A stretch of 64,000 nucleotides of DNA from an uncultured bacterium (GTDB lineage Bacteria > Patescibacteriota > Minisyncoccia > UBA6257 > 2-01-FULL-56-20). The stretch is taken from assembly GCA_963844965.1 (NCBI GenBank), contig CAWJQC010000004.1, positions 1 through 64,000 of the forward strand, given 5' to 3'. A program made the position numbers and the translations under genes. The notes under the pieces were generated by a model. That model did no database searches. It was not told the DNA's origin and saw nothing but the letters and a program-made list of their open reading frames with translations. This document shows, piece after piece, positions 9,313 to 52,784 of the stretch (the stretch's first letter is position 1; every line of letters begins with the position of its first letter).

Positions 9313-9881
9313 CTAGAGTTTTTTGTACTCAATAATTATCTCCTGTTTATCTTTCAGGACCAGATTCTCATATTCGGTGCTAGGTTTGCCGTCAACGGTC
9401 ATCGTGAGTTCATGATCGGCGTCGCGATAATAATCCATTATCCAGTCCTTGGAAAATCTCTCGCCCCAGACGGCGAAGAAATCCCCCAACGTGAACGGCG
9501 TATTATCATAGGGCTCTACGTCAATCGTTCCGCTCGCGTCGTCCGTGTGGATTATCCGCTCGCAATCCGCGGTGAGGCCAATGCCGGCCGGTATCGTGAC
9601 GCTCTTGCCGTTAACGATGATCGCGAGATGCGGATAGATGCGGTATTGCTGCGGAGGCGGATTCAAGAAACTCGCGCATGGCACTTCGTGGATGGCAGAG
9701 ACAGCCGTATTAGAGCTTGAAGCGGCGTTCGGCGTGCTGCTTTCTTCGGTCTCTACGGAAGGAGCCGTGCCGAAACTGGCATGCGCGAAAGTCCGCCCAA
9801 CCCCATGACCACGGTGAGACCCATGATGACCACGAGAACTATTGTGAGCGTTCTTTTGCCGCTGCCGCTTTTCTTTTTCAT
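9313..9881 (-). CDS. Hypothetical protein with N-terminal TM segment (MKKKSGSGKRTLTIVLVVIMGLTVV...); frame-shifted about 80 codons in
   Basis: ATG at 9881 overlaps the GIY-YIG stop as ATGA; downstream ORF 9313..9684 is in another frame. Confidence 0.4.
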
Positions 9882-10135
9882 CCCGTTAGAGACAGGAAAC
9901 GCTTTAACCTATTCTTGAGGTAGCGCTTACCCATGCCAGACTTTAAATATTTTTCTCTCGACTTTGCATCTTCCTCATTAAGACATGCTTCGTAATATAT
10001 CAGACGATACGGTCCATTATAGCTGGTATATTTCGATTTCCTTGCATTGTGGTCATTAAAGCGTTTCCGTAAATCCGAGGTATATCCTGTGTACCAACGT
10101 CTATTCTTATTTTCTAATACGTATACGTAGTACAT
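9878..10135 (-). CDS. GIY-YIG nuclease family protein (85 aa)
   Basis: N-terminal YYVYVLEN...RWYTGYTSDLRKRFNDHN is a GIY-YIG motif; gene lies between inverted repeats atcccgttagagac (9880-9893) and gtctctaacgggat (10146-10159). Confidence 0.8.
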   Translation of the reverse strand: MYYVYVLENKNRRWYTGYTSDLRKRFNDHNARKSKYTSYNGPYRLIYYEACLNEEDAKSREKYLKSGMGKRYLKNRLKRFLSLTG

Positions 10136-10199: not shown

Positions 10200-10640
10200 A
10201 TTCTATAACATAATCGCAAGCGGGTCTAATAACACCTTGCCAGGTCGCCTGCCTGCCGGTTTACCCGCCGAAGGAGGACAGGCAGGTCTAACGGCCCACG
10301 CACCAAAACAAAGTTTGGTACGGGGTAAATAGGACATCGGCCGGCGCGAAGTCCCGCATAAAGCTGCGGGGTCGTCTAACTTGCCCCGCCGCACTTTAAA
10401 AAATCAAAAATAAATTTCTTGCCAGTGCTGCCGGGTCGTCTAATGGTAGGACATCGGCCTTTGGAGCCGAGTATCTTGGTCCGACTCCAAGCCCGGCAGC
10501 ACTGGCCGGAAAAGTGCGGCGGGGTGAAGTAGGACACGGGCCTTTGGAGCCCGGTATGAAGGTTCGATTCCTTCCCCCTCAGCACGAGCCACCGCAGTAT
10601 AATCCGACCCTACTCGCCATAGGTCGAGGAAGGCCGGATA
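10200..10640 (+). repeat. Cluster of tRNA-like repeats and pseudo-tRNAs; GTAGGACA(T/C)(C/G)GGCC occurs three times, gtcgtctaa twice, plus a P1/P2 palindrome
   Basis: Recurrent tRNA D-arm and anticodon-arm-like segments; only one unit folds into a complete cloverleaf. Confidence 0.5.
10429..10499 (+). tRNA. tRNA-Gln (anticodon TTG), no encoded CCA
   Basis: Acceptor tgccggg/cccggca, 3-bp D stem gtc/gac, anticodon stem tcggc/gccga with loop ctttgga, T arm cttgg-tccgact-ccaag; unusual C55 in the T loop. Confidence 0.5.
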
Positions 10641-11176: not shown

Positions 11177-11185
11177 TTCTGTCGG

Positions 11186-11258
11186 GCCGCTGGGAATCGA
11201 ACCCAGTCTTTATCCGCCAAAGGCGGACAGGCGCACCCTCACCCCCACACCGATTGTA
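11186..11258 (-). ncRNA. tRNA-like 3' portion (anticodon arm with TTT, T arm ctggg-ttcgatt-cccag, acceptor 3' strand cggcccg) directly downstream of tRNA-Pro
   Basis: Lacks its own 5' acceptor; the complementary cgggccg lies at 11399-11405 on the far side of tRNA-Pro. Confidence 0.5.
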
Positions 11259-11263
11259 ATTTG

Positions 11264-11334
11264 TCGGGGAGCCGGGAATCGAACCCGGTCTTCACGCACC
11301 CGAAGCGCGCGTACTGCCGGTATACTACTCCCCG
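11264..11334 (-). tRNA. tRNA-Pro (anticodon CGG)
   Basis: Acceptor cggggag/ctccccg, D arm gtat-accggca-gtac, anticodon stem cgcgc/gcgtg with loop ttcgggt, T arm ccggg-ttcgatt-cccgg. Confidence 0.75.
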
Positions 11335-11405
11335 GTAAATTGGTGTGGGGGCGTGGCGCACGCCTGTCCGCCTCCGGCGGATACTACCGGTATACTACGG
11401 CCCGT
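11335..11405 (-). ncRNA. tRNA-like 5' fragment (acceptor cgggccg plus D arm tagtataccggtagta, nearly identical to the tRNA-Pro 5' half), followed by a tccgcc-ggag-ggcgga hairpin and an inverted-repeat arm caggcg...cccccacacc
   Basis: No T arm; its 3' tail is complementary to the head of the 11186-11258 fragment (ggtgtggggg...cgcctg). Confidence 0.5.
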
Positions 11406-15694: not shown

Positions 15695-16123
15695 TCACTT
15701 AATTAAAGCGAGGGAGAGCAATACTGCCGCTAAGGAAAGAATGATTAACCCGGAAAAAAATATATAATCAGCAACGTTCTCATAAAGATTAGATCTGCGT
15801 TCAGAAGCCGCGCGCATTGACATGAAGGAGAACAGGCTGCTTACGCAGAATAAAAGAATCTCCGCAGTTGCAATTTTGTCAATTATAGTTATGTTCGGCA
15901 GACCAAGAACCCTGACGGTGGTAAGTACTATGAACGAAAAACCTACCAGGTTTGATGAGGCATTCAATATGTGGGGTGAATTATTATTGTTGTCGTTGTT
16001 GGTAGACATGAGTAGATATAAATAGTTTATAGTGGATTTTGGTGGACCTAGGCGGAATCTCCCGATATTTCTCCCGACTTTAGTCGCGGATGAAATATCG
16101 CGGATACTCGATTTTGTAATCAA
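15695..16123 (-). CDS. Hypothetical small membrane protein (likely start at the internal Met, MSTNNDNNNN)
   Basis: ORF with two or three TM helices. Confidence 0.4.
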   Translation of the reverse strand: MITKSSIRDISSATKVGRNIGRFRLGPPKSTINYLYLLMSTNNDNNNNSPHILNASSNLVGFSFIVLTTVRVLGLPNITIIDKIATAEILLFCVSSLFSFMSMRAASERRSNLYENVADYIFFSGLIILSLAAVLLSLALIK

Positions 16124-16180
16124 ATCGGAGATTTGAACAAAATCGGGAGAACCGCCGCCTCGTCAATGTCCCGATAGCTG

Positions 16181-16254
16181 TGGTGGACCCACCGGGAATT
16201 GAACCCGGACCTCGGCAATGCGAATGCCGCGTAATGCCGTTTTACTATGGGCCC
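16181..16254 (-). tRNA. tRNA-Ala (anticodon CGC), CCA encoded
   Basis: Acceptor gggccca/tgggtcc (one G-U pair), D arm gtaa-aacggca-ttac, anticodon cggca-ttcgcat-tgccg, T arm ccggg-ttcaatt-cccgg. Confidence 0.8.
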
Positions 16255-31762: not shown

Positions 31763-32340
31763 TTGCGTGGGCAGTCGTGAATTTTACGCGGAAATGAACT
31801 TCCGCGCCGATCTGCGTTATGTCTGCGCTTGTCTGCGGTTGAACTTCGCCCGATATCTGAAAAAGAGCTTTTTAGTTGTCCCAACCTATCATGAAACACG
31901 CAACCTGAAACATGGAACATTACAAAATGTTTCATGCTTCATGTTTTATACTTCGTGCTTCACGTCGACTAACTATTTGTTAATAGTTTAATTGATCCAC
32001 GGGCAGCTTCCGCTACTCGTGCCTTGTTACGACTTATCCCATGTCACCGAGCTTAAGCTAAATCGCCTGAGGCGATCTTCACCTACTCCCGGCTCCCTTG
32101 GATTGACGGGCAGTGAGTACAGGACTCGAGAACGTATTCACCGCAACATAGCTGATTTGCGATTACTAGCGATTCCAGCTTCATGAGGGCAGGTTGCAGC
32201 CCTCAATCCGAACTGAGACCGGGTTTGATGGGATTAGCTCCGCCTTGCGACTTCGCAACCCATTGTCCCGGCCATTGTAGCACGAGTGTAGCCCAGGGCA
32301 TCAGAGGGCCATGCTGATTTGACGTCATCCCCTCCTTCCT

Positions 32341-32439
32341 CCCCGCTCAGAAACCACGAGACATGAGACACACGTCACGACTCACAAATTTATTGTGCAT
32401 CGTGCTACGTGTATCGTGCATCATGAACTCTGAGCGGGG
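32341..32439 (-). other. 16S intervening sequence 1: about 100-nt hairpin insertion closed by an 11-bp stem (ccccgctcaga/tctgagcgggg) in the helix 39/40 region
   Basis: Sequence between the conserved 1100 and 1190 blocks replaced by a self-complementary insert. Confidence 0.7.
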
Positions 32440-32511
32440 CAGTTTCGCGTGACACTTGTAACACACGATAGGGGTTGCGCTCGTTACCCCACTTAAGGGA
32501 ACACTTCAAAG

Positions 32512-32542
<31 letters not shown>

Positions 32543-32669
32543 ACGTGACGTCCTTGAGAGAGGGCCCGCCTTTCGGCAAGCTTTCGTCACGAATTTCAAG
32601 CCCTGGTAAGGTTCCTCGCTTACTGTCGAATTAAACCTCATGCTCCACCGCTTGTGCGAGTCCCCGTCT

Positions 32670-32701
<32 letters not shown>

Positions 32702-33161
32702 TCCCAGGCGGCCGACTTAACGCGTTAGCTCCGCCACTCCGAGGGTCGATACTCGAAACAGCAAGTCGGCATCGTTTAGGGCGTGGACTACAAGGGTATC
32801 TAATCCTTTTTGCTCCCCACGCTTTCGCGTCTCAGAGTCAGGAAGGTCCCAGTGCCATGCCTTCGCCTTTGGTGTTCCGCACGATATCAACGGATTTCAC
32901 CCCTACACCGTGCGTTCCAGGCACCTCTAACCTCCTCTAGTTTCGCCGTATCTCCTGCACTTCCACCGTTAGGCGGTGGGATTTAACAGAAGACGCACGA
33001 AACCTCCTACACGCTCTTTACGCCCAATAAATCCGGATAACGCTCGAGGTCTACGTATTACCGCGGGTGCTGGCACGTAGTTACCAACCTCTTTCCGTAT
33101 GGTACGGTCACCCAGCACTTTTGGAACGAACTTTTCTAATTTGCTCAAATTTTTGGAGGTA

Positions 33162-33190
33162 TTGACAACAGCAATCACTTCTGCTATAAT
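33162..33190 (+). promoter_or_regulatory. Perfect consensus sigma70 promoter (TTGACA-17-TATAAT) inside IVS-2, oriented antisense to the rRNA
   Basis: ttgacaacagcaatcacttctgctataat. Confidence 0.6.
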
Positions 33191-33269
33191 GCCCATAGCA
33201 CATTGGGAGACCAACGTGCCGCACGTCGGGCCTCAGCCCTTGTGCAATTCCCAAAAGGAGAATTGATTT

Positions 33270-33461
33270 ATGCGTGCCAAATTCCCGTCACAAGTCACGG
33301 ATCGAATACTGGAAGCAGCCAAGAAAGAGTACTCCTTCCAGATCAATCATGCGGAATTAGGGCGGCGGCTGTTTACGCGCAAGCACTGTGGCACGAGAAT
33401 GGTTCAGGTAAAAGTCTTTCTGCAAGGAAGACAACAACCTGCCATACTCGGAAAACAATAA
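33270..33461 (+). CDS. 63-aa ORF inside 16S IVS-2, antisense to the rRNA (MRAKFPSQVTDRILEAAKKEYSFQINHAELGRRLFTRKHCGTRMVQVKVFLQGRQQPAILGKQ); has its own promoter, SD and terminator
   Basis: SD aaaaggagaa 6 nt before ATG; intrinsic terminator ctgccaccagaagctttccggtggcag plus TTTTTT at 33543-33575. Confidence 0.45.
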   Translation: MRAKFPSQVTDRILEAAKKEYSFQINHAELGRRLFTRKHCGTRMVQVKVFLQGRQQPAILGKQ

Positions 33462-33542
33462 CCACAGATGCACGGACGCCGCAGTATGCCCCGTTTGTTT
33501 GCTGGCATATGTCATGACTAACGACTAGCTGCCACCTTTCTA

Positions 33543-33575
33543 CTGCCACCAGAAGCTTTCCGGTGGCAGTTTTTT
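33543..33575 (+). terminator. Rho-independent terminator of the IVS-2 mini-gene
   Basis: 11-bp GC-rich stem followed by a T6 run. Confidence 0.6.
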
Positions 33576-34434
33576 AAATCCAAAAATTTGAGCAAATTAG
33601 TTTTCCCGCCAAAAGTGCTGGGTTCTTCCCATACTACCGCAGTTTACAACCCGAAGGCCTTCTTCCTGCACGCGGCGTCGCTCGATCAGGCTTTCGCCCA
33701 TTGTCGAATATTCTCGGCTACTGCCACCCGTAGGTGTACGAACCGTTTCTCAGTTTCGTCGTTGGGGGTCAGGCTCTCACCTCCCCTACCGGTCATAGCC
33801 TTGGTAGGCCGTTACCCTGCCAACTAGCTGATCGGACCTAGGCCGCTCTTGGAGCGTCTTGCGACTTTGGATGCGAATGGCTTTCGCCCCCGCATCATCA
33901 TCAGGAATTACCCCGCCTTTCGGCGAGCTGTGCCCGTCTCCAAGGTACGTTACCAAGGTGTTACTAACTCGTTCGCCGCTCACTATTTTCCTTGCGGAAA
34001 ATAGTTCGCTCAACTTGCATGCCTTATCCACGCCGCCAGCGTTCATCCTGGACCAGGATCAAATCCTCAGTAAAAATCGCGCATTTATTCAATACGCGAG
34101 ATTGTGCGCCATGCATGACGCCCAAACTCGCGCATCTCACTCGTGCGTGAGTTCATACCGCGATTGATTTATTGATCTCGGTTTATTTCAATTCCAAACC
34201 GAAAAATGAATCTTATTGGGACAACTAAAAAACTCTTTTTTATTTACTTTTCTCATATTAATTTTTCAATCTGCAGTCGGCGCAGTCCTTTACCCCGCAC
34301 ATTACCTTCGGTAATAACGGGGCGAGCAACAAAACATCCCCCCTACACATTCTAAACCTCAGAAGAATGTGTAGGGCGGATGTCTTTAGACACACCATAA
34401 TATTGAGATATCAAACCTATCCGTTTTCCATATT

Positions 34435-43096: not shown

Positions 43097-43604
43097 TTTT
43101 GTTGCTGGCAATCCGTAAGCCGGATTCTGTCGCGCCTGCCTGTCGGCAGACGATGCGATCATTTATCTGGGCCCTTGATTGCTCGCGGGCTCAAGCGGCA
43201 CTTCCACCTCATCGGCGGACACGGCCTTGCACCCAGTAAGGATTTAGCCGTTTCATCTCCACTTTTTTATCCCTATGGCGGAGCTGGACCGACTAGCTTG
43301 GGATTGGGTCCGTCCGACTTTTTCAAATCGGACCGTTTCTGCTCGCACCTCTATTCTTACGAACGACGGCTGTTAGCCGCTACTATTTTATCCCTCCCCA
43401 GTTTTGCCAGTAATGTCACTGGCAAAACTGGGGAGGGATGGTGTCCGGACTTTCCTCCCTACATTTTCTAGAATTTTAAGAAAATGTAGGGCGATCGCCT
43501 AGATTGCCAGCTAACTACAGTGTAACATTCTATCAAAAAAAATCAAGTCCGGAAGCAGTGTTCGCGACTAGCCGGTGATATTTTAATTCACGGCGGACAT
43601 ACCT

Positions 43605-51808: not shown

Positions 51809-52060
51809 CTAGGCGGCACCGGCCGTGTCGGATTTGTCCTTGCTTATGCCGAGCTTGTTCATTAAACCCTTTCTCGTTTTCTCCAGCTCGGGCAACAGCA
51901 CTCGGTCCTCTACCGTAGAATTACCGGCTCCCATCCACATGTTCAATTCTGCAATCCGCTTCTCAAGATTCTTAAGCTCGGCTATATCGGCCTCGCGCCT
52001 TGCCATTTTTGCCTCATCCTCTAACCTTTTTTCTTTTCGTTCAAACCATCCCATAAACAA
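51809..52060 (-). CDS. Hypothetical coiled-coil protein
   Basis: 83-aa ORF. Confidence 0.4.
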   Translation of the reverse strand: MFMGWFERKEKRLEDEAKMARREADIAELKNLEKRIAELNMWMGAGNSTVEDRVLLPELEKTRKGLMNKLGISKDKSDTAGAA

Positions 52061-52142
52061 ATGTTAGCAAGCAAACGCCACAATATCAATATTTATGCCT
52101 ACGCGTCTTATTTAAACCGAACTGTTTTACCCCACACTTTCC

Positions 52143-52180
52143 GCCGAATGAGCCGAGGAGAGGAGTCGAACCTCCAACCT
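52143..52180 (-). ncRNA. tRNA 3' fragment (T arm ggagg-ttcgact-cctct, identical to that of tRNA-Leu, plus acceptor 3' strand cctcggc) directly downstream of tRNA-Thr(TGT)
   Basis: No room for a 5' half before the adjacent tRNA; a complementary acceptor strand gtcgagg lies at about 52402-52408. Confidence 0.5.
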
Positions 52181-52212
52181 ACGGTTTATCCCGATTTTGC
52201 AAAATTTGCCTT

Positions 52213-52284
52213 GAGCCGGCGGTCGGATTTGAACCGACGACCTGCTGTTTACAAAACAGCTGCTCTGCCGCTGAGCTACGCCGG
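52213..52284 (-). tRNA. tRNA-Thr (anticodon TGT)
   Basis: Acceptor gccggcg/cgccggc, D arm tagctcagcggcagagca, anticodon gctgt-tttgtaa-acagc, T arm gtcgg-ttcaaat-ccgac; flanked by direct repeats ttttgcaaaat (52187-52199 and 52289-52300). Confidence 0.8.
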
Positions 52285-52329
52285 CAATTTTTTTGCAAAA
52301 TCGCGGACTCGCGATATTGTAAGCAAATC

Positions 52330-52408
52330 GTAGATTTGCACAATATCGGAGCAAAACCGTTGCTCCCTGCCCCGCACCGAGCTTTGCTCTGGTGCGCGGG
52401 TGCCATTG
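52330..52408 (-). ncRNA. tRNA-like 5' fragment (acceptor gtcgagg plus D-loop-like tagttcaatggca) followed by two hairpins
   Basis: Hairpins ccgcgcacc...ggtgcggg and ggagcaa-cggtt-ttgctcc; acceptor complementary to the 52143-52180 3' fragment, with one G-U pair. Confidence 0.4.
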
Positions 52409-52520
52409 AACTACCTCGACAAATATGCCTGAACCCAAAAATTATTCTAACAGAAAATTGAAAAATCGGCAATTTTCATCAAAAAAGCCCCGCGCTCGAA
52501 GCACGGGGCTACTCAAAATA

Positions 52521-52784
52521 TCATTGCGCCAATACCTTGTTAGGTTGAGCAACTTGCCGTCTCCCGGTGTATCCCCTGATCTCACTCAGCCCGGCATAAA
52601 TGACGTGACCAACCATCAATTCCGGACGATCTTCGTCCATACCCCCTACAAACTCACAGGGAAAACCGGCTCCCATAACAAGCTGGCAAGCATCCCTTGA
52701 TTCGTTTGACACTCCAAAGATCAGAAGGGCTTCATCTCTGATGGGGATTTCTGTTGCCATTACAAGTCTCCTTTCGTAATTCAT
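52521..52784 (-). CDS. Hypothetical protein
   Basis: 87-aa ORF. Confidence 0.35.
   Translation of the reverse strand: MNYERRLVMATEIPIRDEALLIFGVSNESRDACQLVMGAGFPCEFVGGMDEDRPELMVGHVIYAGLSEIRGYTGRRQVAQPNKVLAQ

Follow-up and report, generated by a model that had tools for sequence, protein, structure and literature searches.

A tRNA-Thr gene nested inside a second tRNA-Thr gene in a Patescibacteria genome: a probable selfish cassette that supplies a replacement for the gene it disrupts

Introns and inteins splice themselves out. Integrative elements aimed at tRNA genes make good the part that they displace with sequence from their own attachment site, the anticodon loops and T-loops of tRNAs being the classic crossover sites of integrases. 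The Rickettsia palindromic elements are gene-invading repeats that resemble miniature inverted-repeat transposable elements (MITEs), i.e., short non-autonomous transposable elements. The split, permuted and multi-intron tRNA genes of archaea use bulge-helix-bulge (BHB) introns, and in synthetic 'cleave and rescue' drives a nuclease hits an essential gene of which the element carries a copy that keeps its carrier alive. Group I introns located at 35/36 of the genes for tRNA-Asn and tRNA-Asp in Patescibacteria have been proven to be self-splicing in a study which also mentions the split, permuted and multi-intron tRNA genes of archaea (PMC13011429). SegB of phage T4 is a free-standing GIY-YIG homing endonuclease encoded within a tRNA gene cluster (PMC2330249). 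In bacteria of the Candidate Phyla Radiation (CPR), inserts in rRNA genes carry GIY-YIG genes and were described as 'not similar to either intron', while many are short (<200 bp), lack an open reading frame (ORF) and are positioned at the tops or bases of stem-loops (PMC11270868). No description of nested tRNA genes or of nuclease elements with a replacement tRNA was found in the literature searched, outside which most subscription journals lie, so that this is absence of evidence only; the literature on GIY-YIG proteins with tRNA genes and on UPF0213/YhbQ likewise gave no account of such an arrangement. Here, we describe a tRNA-Thr(UGU) gene which is nested within another tRNA-Thr(UGU) gene in a 64-kb stretch of DNA from an uncultured bacterium (contig CAWJQC010000004.1, positions 1 to 64,000; hereafter, the window). 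We consider it likely that a nuclease-associated selfish element has disrupted the resident tRNA gene and supplies a replacement which is expressed from the resident promoter.

All features of the locus are on the minus strand, where the complete outer tRNA-Thr(UGU) gene spans 52420..52151 and is interrupted twice, in the D-loop (21/22) by a 35-nt hairpin and in the anticodon loop (35/36) by a 163-nt cassette (Table 1). When both inserts were deleted in silico, ARAGORN recognized a 73-nt tRNA-Thr(tgt) with an acceptor stem of 7 bp (one G-U), a D-stem of 4 bp, and anticodon and T-stems of 5 bp each. The acceptor 3' strand CCTCGGC (52158..52152) pairs with GTCGAGG, again counting the one G-U, and the outer T arm GGAGG-TTCGACT-CCTCT (GGAGGTTCGACTCCTCT) is the same as the T arm of tRNA-Leu(GAG). 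An earlier note, made from the letters of this DNA, had listed the 5' piece, the hairpins, the inner tRNA, the repeats, the T arm and the acceptor 3' strand, and all of these are present, including the identity of the T arm and the pairing of the acceptor strands. The end that it gave, 52408, drops the first 12 bases of the 5' piece, which reaches 52420. Its description of the outer gene as a 5' and a 3' fragment did not hold. The missing middle (52365..52352 and 52188..52181) was recognized inside the 'hairpin' region by comparison with a relative, L011 (L labels denote loci from relatives or metagenome contigs that were compared with the window). Because these second and third pieces supply its middle, the outer gene is whole and merely split at 21/22 and 35/36.

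Could the outer fragments be tRNA-like by chance only? Complementarity over 7 nt might by itself be random, but a full cloverleaf was recovered which is 86% identical to a syntenic orthologue (that of L012), and the layout is found in ten loci. In addition, the locus folds far more stably than shuffled sequence (z = -6.7). A chance resemblance, which the earlier note had already held to be unlikely, is hardly conceivable and is refuted by the recovered cloverleaf together with the recurrence in ten loci. A tmRNA or Y-RNA-like outer structure was also rejected, because a G3-U70 pair and a tag reading frame are both absent and the Rfam matches were at noise level.

The cassette (52351..52189) consists of two tandem hairpins placed exactly between positions 35 and 36, with a 3' end that reads ...ATCGGGA (52189) and hairpin bases that read TCC(N)CGAT...ATCG(N)GGA. 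The complete inner, or cargo, tRNA-Thr called by the earlier note was confirmed by ARAGORN and by Rfam RF00005 (72.7 bits vs a cut-off of 29); apart from it, the cassette has 90 nt. The sequence TTTTGCAAAAT is present at both 52195-52205 and 52291-52301, and had been taken for a possible target-site duplication. The two copies are instead the arms of a perfect 13-nt inverted repeat, CGATTTTGCAAAA/TTTTGCAAAATCG, which forms the stem that holds the inner tRNA, and they only appear to be direct repeats because the sequence is itself palindromic. At other loci the stem arms differ and are non-palindromic yet complementary, e.g., GATTTCTCATCCAAAGTCC/GGACTTTGGGAGAAATC in L083. The real junctions of the cassette, TTTG/CTCC and CGGGA/TAA, have no duplicated bases, and no target-site duplication was found at flanks TTTG/.../TAA, AGTG/.../G and GTTC/.../GATT, which rebuild the tRNA exactly. 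A classical integrative element (phage or island) might also have left such a locus as its scar, its tyrosine integrase having acted on the tRNA gene as attachment site, with duplicated parts of the tRNA as the result. Anticodon loops and T-loops are where such integrases classically cross over, and the Ala locus of the window is reminiscent of an attL/attR arrangement, in that a displaced 3' part, from position 36, comes after a complete tRNA. However, the presence of both outer halves around a complete inner gene is that of an insertion and not of a crossover product, the insert is only 163 nt in length and has no ORF, no integrase or island accompanies it, and the duplicated parts share just 73% identity (inner vs outer) instead of being identical direct repeats. 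The junction, exact to the base in ten loci, also contradicts this origin, which is very unlikely.

The neighbourhood of the locus identifies which of the two genes is the resident. The window comes from a Patescibacteria genome of the Paceibacteria/Liptonbacteria kind. Its best dnaE relatives are 77% identical, and a tRNA-Thr gene is located directly upstream of dnaE, in the same orientation, in 21 species representatives. Nineteen of these are plain genes of 72-76 nt, i.e., empty sites; the gene of L011 is nested as in the window, and L023 retains only a 5' remnant and part of the insert. The rebuilt outer gene shares 86% identity with the syntenic uninterrupted tRNA of L012, whereas the inner tRNA is just 73-77% identical to the outer gene and to the syntenic plain genes (73% to the outer gene of the window), its closest match being the tRNA-Thr(CGU) of L026 (85%), followed by the inner gene of L011 (84%). 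Based on this difference, the outer gene is the orthologue resident at the site, to which the inner gene is foreign. An exact-sequence look-up of the L33 and DnaE of the window, made in search of the same strain with an empty site, found neither on record. As a separate observation, the single-copy dnaE-proximal tRNA-Thr(UGU) genes of L009, L010, L016 and L037 have the T-loop TCCGAAT or TCCGAGT, with a C where the near-universal U55 is expected.

The same cassette was found at 35/36 in ten distinct tRNA-Thr loci, i.e., the window, L011, L083, L086, L092, L113, L115, L124, L135 and L136 (L084 and L103 are identical to L083, and L087 to L086, and were not counted separately). In L092 the cargo is partly deleted and in L124 the 3' end is missing; the remaining eight cassettes are full, have 163-169 nt and are mutually 76-91% identical, while the outer 3' exons around them share just 47-80% identity. 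The junction TTTG/CTCC...CGGGA/TAA is exact to the base in all ten loci and in three outer tRNA-Thr types. Between the window and L135, for instance, identity reaches 89% for the cassettes and only 1 nt separates the cargo tRNAs, and yet the outer genes belong to different tRNA-Thr types (GTCGAGG vs GCCACCT). As in homing elements, the site is fixed (the same junction in ten loci) and has empty alleles (the 19 uninterrupted syntenic genes). These results support the suggestion in the earlier note of tRNA-targeting insertion by tRNA-carrying elements, and the recurrence in related genomes for which it had called was found, the nested layout and the complementary outer halves being present in, e.g., L011, L083 and L113. 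Directly 5' of the cassette, the window, L113 and L115 share the same 14 exon bases, and the window and L113 also agree over the first 14 bases 3' of it, despite acceptor and T arms that differ among the three. This looks like co-conversion during a copying process mediated by repair. Because of this pattern, the seemingly compensatory differences in the outer anticodon stems are poor evidence of selection.

Local duplication or recombination among tRNA-Thr paralogues, accompanied by unrelated hairpin repeats, might produce passive debris of a similar appearance. Hairpin repeats and tRNA remnants are abundant, with four such loci in the 64-kb window, and deletions between outer and inner genes clearly happen (the window Ala locus, L023, L124). 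Moreover, in L100 (4140-4520), as in L142 (4800-5100), a remnant of tRNA-Glu encloses a tRNA-Glu(CUC), the conserved hairpin running opposite to the tRNAs, and the retained outer part of L100 is identical to the cargo (53/53 nt, by reading). Such an origin is nevertheless quite unlikely in view of a junction which is identical to the base in ten loci and three outer tRNA-Thr types, a cassette length that is constant at 163-169 nt, a cassette better conserved than its flanks, and the repetition of a remnant-nuclease-replacement layout for Ala, Asp, Lys, Glu and Ser.

The first hairpin of the cassette belongs to a larger repeat family. Its core hairpin CAAATC-NNN-GATTTG recurs in the window at 16148..16060, and the family is present in 62 metagenome loci, identified with a pattern scan, in addition to the two copies in the window; several of the matches are from Hainich groundwater and JGI sediment samples. 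A first DNA pattern, applied to viral contigs, matched only the coding sequence of HNH endonucleases (NLRFVT motif), i.e., false positives; the pattern was made more specific before the metagenome scan. The canonical repeat has about 90-100 nt and consists of TCCC-GATTTTGTNCAAATCTTTGATTTGNTTACAAAATC-GAGGA followed by TCC-N-CGA...(variable hairpin)...TCG-GGA, with the termini TCCCGAT...ATCGGGA. With two tandem hairpins as the structure, 98.1% of the cells are paired across 26 distinct copies, the hairpin base shows compensatory changes (TCCC/GAGGA, TTCC/GAGAA, TGCC/GGGCA; CG 19, UA 4, GC 2), and the covariation score was reached by none of 500 shuffles. A four-way-junction model was rejected, with 92.6% of the cells paired vs 98.1% and one proposed pair unpaired in 13 of the 26 copies. 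G-U pairs are nearly absent (4 of 754 cells) and the repeat model also scores on the opposite strand, both of which favour a structure at the DNA level. The selected structure looks like Watson-Crick hairpins that either strand can form, which fits DNA better than RNA. With the covariance model of the family, R1, the insert of the Thr locus scored 56 bits (E value 1.8e-12), hairpin 1 being aligned perfectly, and the copy in the Ala locus of the window scored 83.3 bits (E value 1e-19). No Rfam family matched the repeat, either with six canonical copies or with the Thr locus as the query. The repeat has the characteristics of MITEs and palindromic repeats, in that it is short, multi-copy and ORF-less, with conserved inverted termini and internal hairpins.

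The family also extends to protein genes. In L043 (9333-9409), a two-hairpin module of the family lies within the coding sequence of miaA, in frame and free of stop codons. In L090, L098, L133 and L143, a cargo-less copy is located between a decayed fragment of the 5' end of a protein gene and the intact gene. These fragments include a start codon and about 10 codons, with 64-77% identity (own count), and derive from topA in L098 and from the gene for a CxxC protein in L090 and L143. They are the gene-start analogue of the tRNA remnants.

Whereas the cassettes are alike, the outer genes differ greatly in their state. Four of the ten form perfect cloverleaves (the window, L011, L083, L113) and six are degenerate. 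L086 and L092 have the change G35A and have lost the 3' strand of the anticodon stem, the halves of L115 fail to pair, the 3' half is absent from L124, L135 has five inserts plus mismatches, and in L136 a G+C hairpin occupies the place of the T arm. Inserts in the D-loop are present in seven of the ten outer genes (the window, L011, L086, L092, L115, L124, L135), those of the others being at or near the site used in the window but different in sequence; none was found in the 19 plain syntenic genes or in the intact cargo tRNAs. Invasion can also recur, since L113 has an older second junction signature and a 3' remnant behind the first, and L097 contains three tRNA-Ala genes nested in three layers. 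As far as comparison of sequences can tell, the pattern is that of an outer gene freed from selection and repeatedly invaded. We think it quite likely that the outer gene of the window is no longer used, and we infer that only the inner tRNA is functional at this locus. Unusual split tRNA genes, the other suggestion of the earlier note, do not agree with the six degenerate outer genes of ten or with extra inserts that pile up in outer copies only.

The main rival explanation, a new class of bacterial tRNA introns, would retain a function for the outer gene. The D-loop hairpin and the cassette would be removed at the RNA level and the exons ligated, with the inner tRNA being encoded by an intron and freed from the same transcript. 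The outer cloverleaf is perfect in the window, L011, L083 and L113, the outer tRNA-Ala of L110 is perfect despite three inserts (D-loop, 35/36 and T-loop), and the T-stems which flank the T-loop insert are complementary with differing sequences (the window, L105, L110, L122). The position 35/36 is also the site of proven self-splicing introns in Patescibacteria (PMC13011429), all ten Thr loci have their insert in the anticodon loop, as group I introns of tRNAs do, and unexplained insertions in rRNA genes are common in this phylum (PMC11270868). Nonetheless, there is no group I or group II signal even at E<=10, and RF00028, the model of the group I ribozyme core (P3-P9), in particular had no match at E<=10 in 51900-52600. 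The 90 nt that remain besides the cargo tRNA are below any known ribozyme core, and the 5' exon does not end in the U that forms the U-G pair of P1 in group I introns but in G35 (...TTTTG), with a local hairpin at the 5' exon end that places the junction on its 3' strand. A BHB motif (3-nt bulges on both sides of a 4-bp helix) is likewise absent, as judged by inspection. The intron start CTCC is unpaired with the 3'-exon start TAAA, and the junctions flank two hairpin bases. The host, moreover, is bacterial, whereas BHB introns go with the splicing endonuclease of an archaeon or eukaryote, the window containing a bacterial small-subunit rRNA and a bacterial class A RNase P RNA and its relatives being Patescibacteria. 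Six of the ten outer genes are degenerate or have mismatched halves, and each insert-bearing tRNA gene that was seen has an intact copy of the same identity inside it or beside it, which counts against splicing because such a copy would be needless if splicing worked. Finally, the repeat occurs in both orientations relative to its host tRNAs (L100, L142), with G-U pairs in only 4 of 754 cells. Removal at the RNA level is thus unlikely; were it true, it would imply an undescribed pathway of excision and ligation in Patescibacteria that acts at the D-loop, the anticodon loop and the T-loop.

A sigma-70-like promoter lies 24 nt ahead of the outer gene (Table 1), just past the terminator of the upstream gene; no other promoter-like site was found on the minus strand ahead of either tRNA, and none in the cassette. 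In L115 and L136, similar sites (TTGAAA-17-TATAAT) are present upstream of the outer gene. The cargo points in the same direction as the outer tRNA in all cases seen, including those with an inverted conserved hairpin (L100, L142). In the proposed sequence of events, insertion at 35/36 would inactivate the resident outer tRNA. We infer that the resident promoter drives transcription of the cargo tRNA along with the outer gene, and that ordinary end processing, i.e., RNase P and 3' processing, frees it, after which it would take over decoding. The outer gene, now dispensable, would gather more hairpin inserts, such as that in the D-loop of the window, and decay. The window copy would have lost its nuclease gene, as in a MITE without a transposase, and would rely on a nuclease from elsewhere. 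Spread of the element would follow if a nuclease breaks an uninterrupted tRNA gene and repair copies the occupied allele (homing) along with a few flanking exon bases.

Candidates for this nuclease are found in relatives of the cassette. In L097, L110/L138, L093/L119 and L130, a two-hairpin insert occupies 35/36 of a tRNA-Ala gene, with an ORF of 81-85 amino acids (aa) at the tip of hairpin 1 and a complete tRNA-Ala in hairpin 2. The ORF products match the Pfam GIY-YIG domain (PF01541; E value 3e-15) and differ from the long enzymes of the I-TevI type; no NCBIfam family scored above its cut-off. Further GIY-YIG ORFs have a 5' remnant on one side and a complete copy of the tRNA on the other, namely of tRNA-Asp (L085), tRNA-Lys (L101), tRNA-Glu (L129) and tRNA-Ser (L134). 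Since it recurs for Ala, Asp, Lys, Glu and Ser, a layout of remnant, nuclease and replacement of the same identity is general in these genomes. That a small GIY-YIG nuclease breaks uninterrupted tRNA genes, and that repair then copies the element in, is an interpretation of these gene arrangements which we favour by a narrow balance. We speculate that a structure-specific nuclease, acting on extruded hairpins, would link the TCC.../...GGA bases with the varied places of insertion and the first capture of a cognate tRNA.

Several observations weigh against this proposal. The Thr cassette of the window is ORF-less and has no nuclease gene, a Thr-type cassette bearing an ORF was not found among the loci compared, and the sole GIY-YIG gene of the window belongs to a different hairpin family. 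The closest solved relatives of the 81-85 aa proteins are uncharacterised single-domain UPF0213 proteins and, weakly, SLX1, which is a structure-specific nuclease. Cargo-less copies of the repeat also occur in the D-loop, in the T-loop, at 26/27, at protein-gene 5' ends and within the reading frame of miaA, and because of these other places the choice of site does not follow one simple target. The identity between cargo and remnant in L100 hints that the cargo may have been copied locally from the target rather than imported. Lastly, the outer genes of the window, L011, L083, L113 and L110 remain perfect cloverleaves, which would be expected of a recent event, yet would equally fit an outer gene that is still in use.

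Table 1. Features of the nested tRNA-Thr locus and of other loci in the window
Feature	Position	Strand	Description
Outer tRNA piece 1 (positions 1-21)	52401..52420	-	acceptor 5' GTCGAGG, TA, D-stem 5' GTTC, D-loop AATGGCA; = GTCGAGG-TA-GTTCAATGGCA
D-loop insert (21/22)	52366..52400	-	35-nt G+C-rich hairpin; CCCGCGCACCAGAGCAAAGCTCGGTGCGGG + GCAGG
Outer tRNA piece 2	52352..52365	-	D-stem 3' GAGC, A26, anticodon-stem 5' ACGGT, loop TTTG (32-35)
Cassette hairpin 1	52308..52351	-	CTCC-GATATTGTGCAAATC-TAC-GATTTGCTTACAATATC-GCGAG; no ORF; conserved repeat-family module
Cassette hairpin 2	52189..52307	-	base TCC-G-CGAT...ATCG-GGA, 13-bp stem CGATTTTGCAAAA/TTTTGCAAAATCG, inner tRNA at tip
Inner (cargo) tRNA-Thr(UGU)	52213..52285	-	complete, canonical, no encoded CCA; ARAGORN Thr(tgt)
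Outer tRNA piece 3, start	52181..52188	-	loop TAA (36-38), anticodon-stem 3' strand ACCGT
Outer tRNA piece 3, overall	52151..52188	-	after TAA-ACCGT: variable AGGTT, T arm, acceptor 3', discriminator T
Sigma-70-like promoter	52444..52472	-	TTGCCG-17-TAGAAT, extended -10 TG; 24 nt ahead of outer gene
GIY-YIG ORF	9878..10135	-	85 aa (MYYVYVLENKNRRWYTGYTSDL...); inside hairpin stem ATCCCGTTAGAG/CTCTAACGGGAT
Nested tRNA-Gln	10365..10585	+	outer gene TGCGGGGTCGTCTAACTTG ... TGAAGTAGGACACGGGCCTTTGGAGCCCGG...CCCCTCAGCA, split in D-loop by hairpin cassette
Pro locus	11182..11404	-	tRNA-Pro(CGG) at tip of ~40-bp stem; Pro-like acceptor, D and T arms flank
Ala locus	16040..16254	-	complete tRNA-Ala(CGC) 16254..16181, then 12-nt cassette stub CAGCTATCGGGA
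Repeat copy, ORF-less and cargo-less	16060..16148	-	in T-loop (56/57) of displaced tRNA-Ala 3' remnant

The window contains four nested or remnant tRNA loci, i.e., Thr, Pro, Gln and Ala (Table 1). In the Ala locus, the cassette stub is followed by the displaced 3' part of an older tRNA-Ala, from position 36, and the same layout is present in L105, L110/L138 and L122; a deletion between the outer and the inner gene, from one 5' half to the other, is its probable origin. The cassette of the Gln locus has the stems CCCCGCCGCAC/GTGCGGCGGGG and GCCAGTGC/GCACTGGC and holds a tRNA-Gln(UUG) at 10429-10500. A weak Rfam tRNA match at 10515-10582 (32.8 bits) is the 3' part of the outer tRNA-Gln, and there is more tRNA-Gln debris at about 10330-10394. 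The GIY-YIG ORF of the window adjoins tRNA-Gln debris and is located immediately upstream of the next gene's start codon; its product could possibly be the trans-acting nuclease of a related hairpin family. The Pro locus, which the earlier note regarded as having the same layout as the Thr locus, shares with it only loosely a tRNA inside tRNA-like flanks. According to model R1 its insert is not a member of the repeat family, and none of 3720 single-deletion constructs gave a tRNA-Pro of 70-78 nt with UGG, CGG or GGG. The insert includes the mini-hairpins TCCGCC-GGA-GGCGGA and TCCGCC-TTT-GGCGGA, and the same stem with a 4-nt loop (TCCGCC-AACT-GGCGGA) occurs in tRNA remnants of L101 and L126.

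Other structural RNA genes of these genomes also contain inserts or are divergent. The 16S rRNA gene of the window (31985-34074) has 2090 nt for a model of 1533 positions, i.e., about 550 nt of inserts, in which no ORF resembling a known endonuclease was found, as judged by eye only. The RNase P RNA (43101-43510) is barely above the Rfam cut-off (100.2 vs 100 bits). In L086 (4681-4965) and in L058, where it is upstream of a GIY-YIG ORF, tRNA-Thr(GGU) contains an insert of about 200 nt that follows GGT (36/37), presumably the tRNA-Thr 'divergent group I intron' to which PMC13011429 refers. It is unrelated to the Thr cassette.

If the proposed replacement is true, bringing a spare copy would be a third way, besides those of introns and inteins, in which an essential gene can house a nuclease-associated selfish element. 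tRNA genes would be repeatedly overwritten and moved between lineages of Patescibacteria, leaving remnants nested like Russian dolls. Such remnants mislead tRNA annotation, as with the weak 'tRNA' in the Gln locus, and missing or duplicated isoacceptors in metagenome-assembled genomes are a likely consequence. The locus would also provide a concrete bacterial case for the long-held idea that tRNA genes are fragmented by mobile elements, a natural analogue of engineered cleave-and-rescue drives, and a testable role for the single-domain GIY-YIG (UPF0213-like) proteins, which are widespread and uncharacterised.

Compared with the group I introns of bacterial tRNA genes, some of which have homing endonuclease genes, the cassette shares the site (anticodon loop, 35/36), the phylum, the predominance of ORF-less copies and, in its relatives, an endonuclease gene within a peripheral hairpin. 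Unlike them, it has no ribozyme core, its 5' exon ends in G and its outer genes decay; the cost of insertion is paid with a replacement tRNA and not by splicing. As with SegB, a GIY-YIG gene lies beside tRNA genes and is inherited with neighbouring tRNA sequence, and co-conversion of the flanks is expected. SegB, however, has DNA-binding modules and is located between genes, whereas the relatives of the cassette encode a bare catalytic domain of 81-85 aa (UPF0213/SLX1-like), have its gene in a hairpin within a tRNA gene and couple it to a replacement tRNA. The rRNA-gene inserts of CPR bacteria (PMC11270868) are found in the same phylum and also have GIY-YIG genes in non-intron inserts of structural RNA genes. 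Unlike the cassette they occupy rRNA and not tRNA, and neither a cargo gene nor nesting was reported for them; judging from their description, they are probably the nearest described relatives.

The Rickettsia palindromic elements resemble the repeat family in size (about 100 nt), in being multi-copy, hairpin-forming and ORF-less, and in the range of their locations, which takes in intergenic DNA, RNA genes and the reading frames of protein genes (as in miaA of L043). The family described here differs in having full-length members with a nuclease and in that one of its subfamilies is found at a single exact position of the cognate tRNA gene and brings a complete tRNA gene with it. With integrative elements, the cassette has in common a tRNA gene as the target, a sequence that keeps the tRNA functional and a displaced remnant that is left behind, but it has 163 nt instead of kilobases, is an insertion and not a crossover, includes a whole tRNA and has no integrase. 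The fragmented tRNAs of archaea are similarly interrupted at several non-canonical positions (here the D-loop, the anticodon loop and the T-loop); the present host, in contrast, is bacterial, there is no bulge-helix-bulge, and the interrupted copies decay beside an intact copy. The logic is that of cleave and rescue, although the cassette is natural and prokaryotic and acts on a tRNA gene. Any resistance of the cargo to cutting would seem not to be absolute, as the re-invaded cargo tRNAs of L097 suggest. In toto, the element joins known kinds, the homing-nuclease elements and the palindromic miniature repeats, with an unusual strategy of replacing what it breaks.

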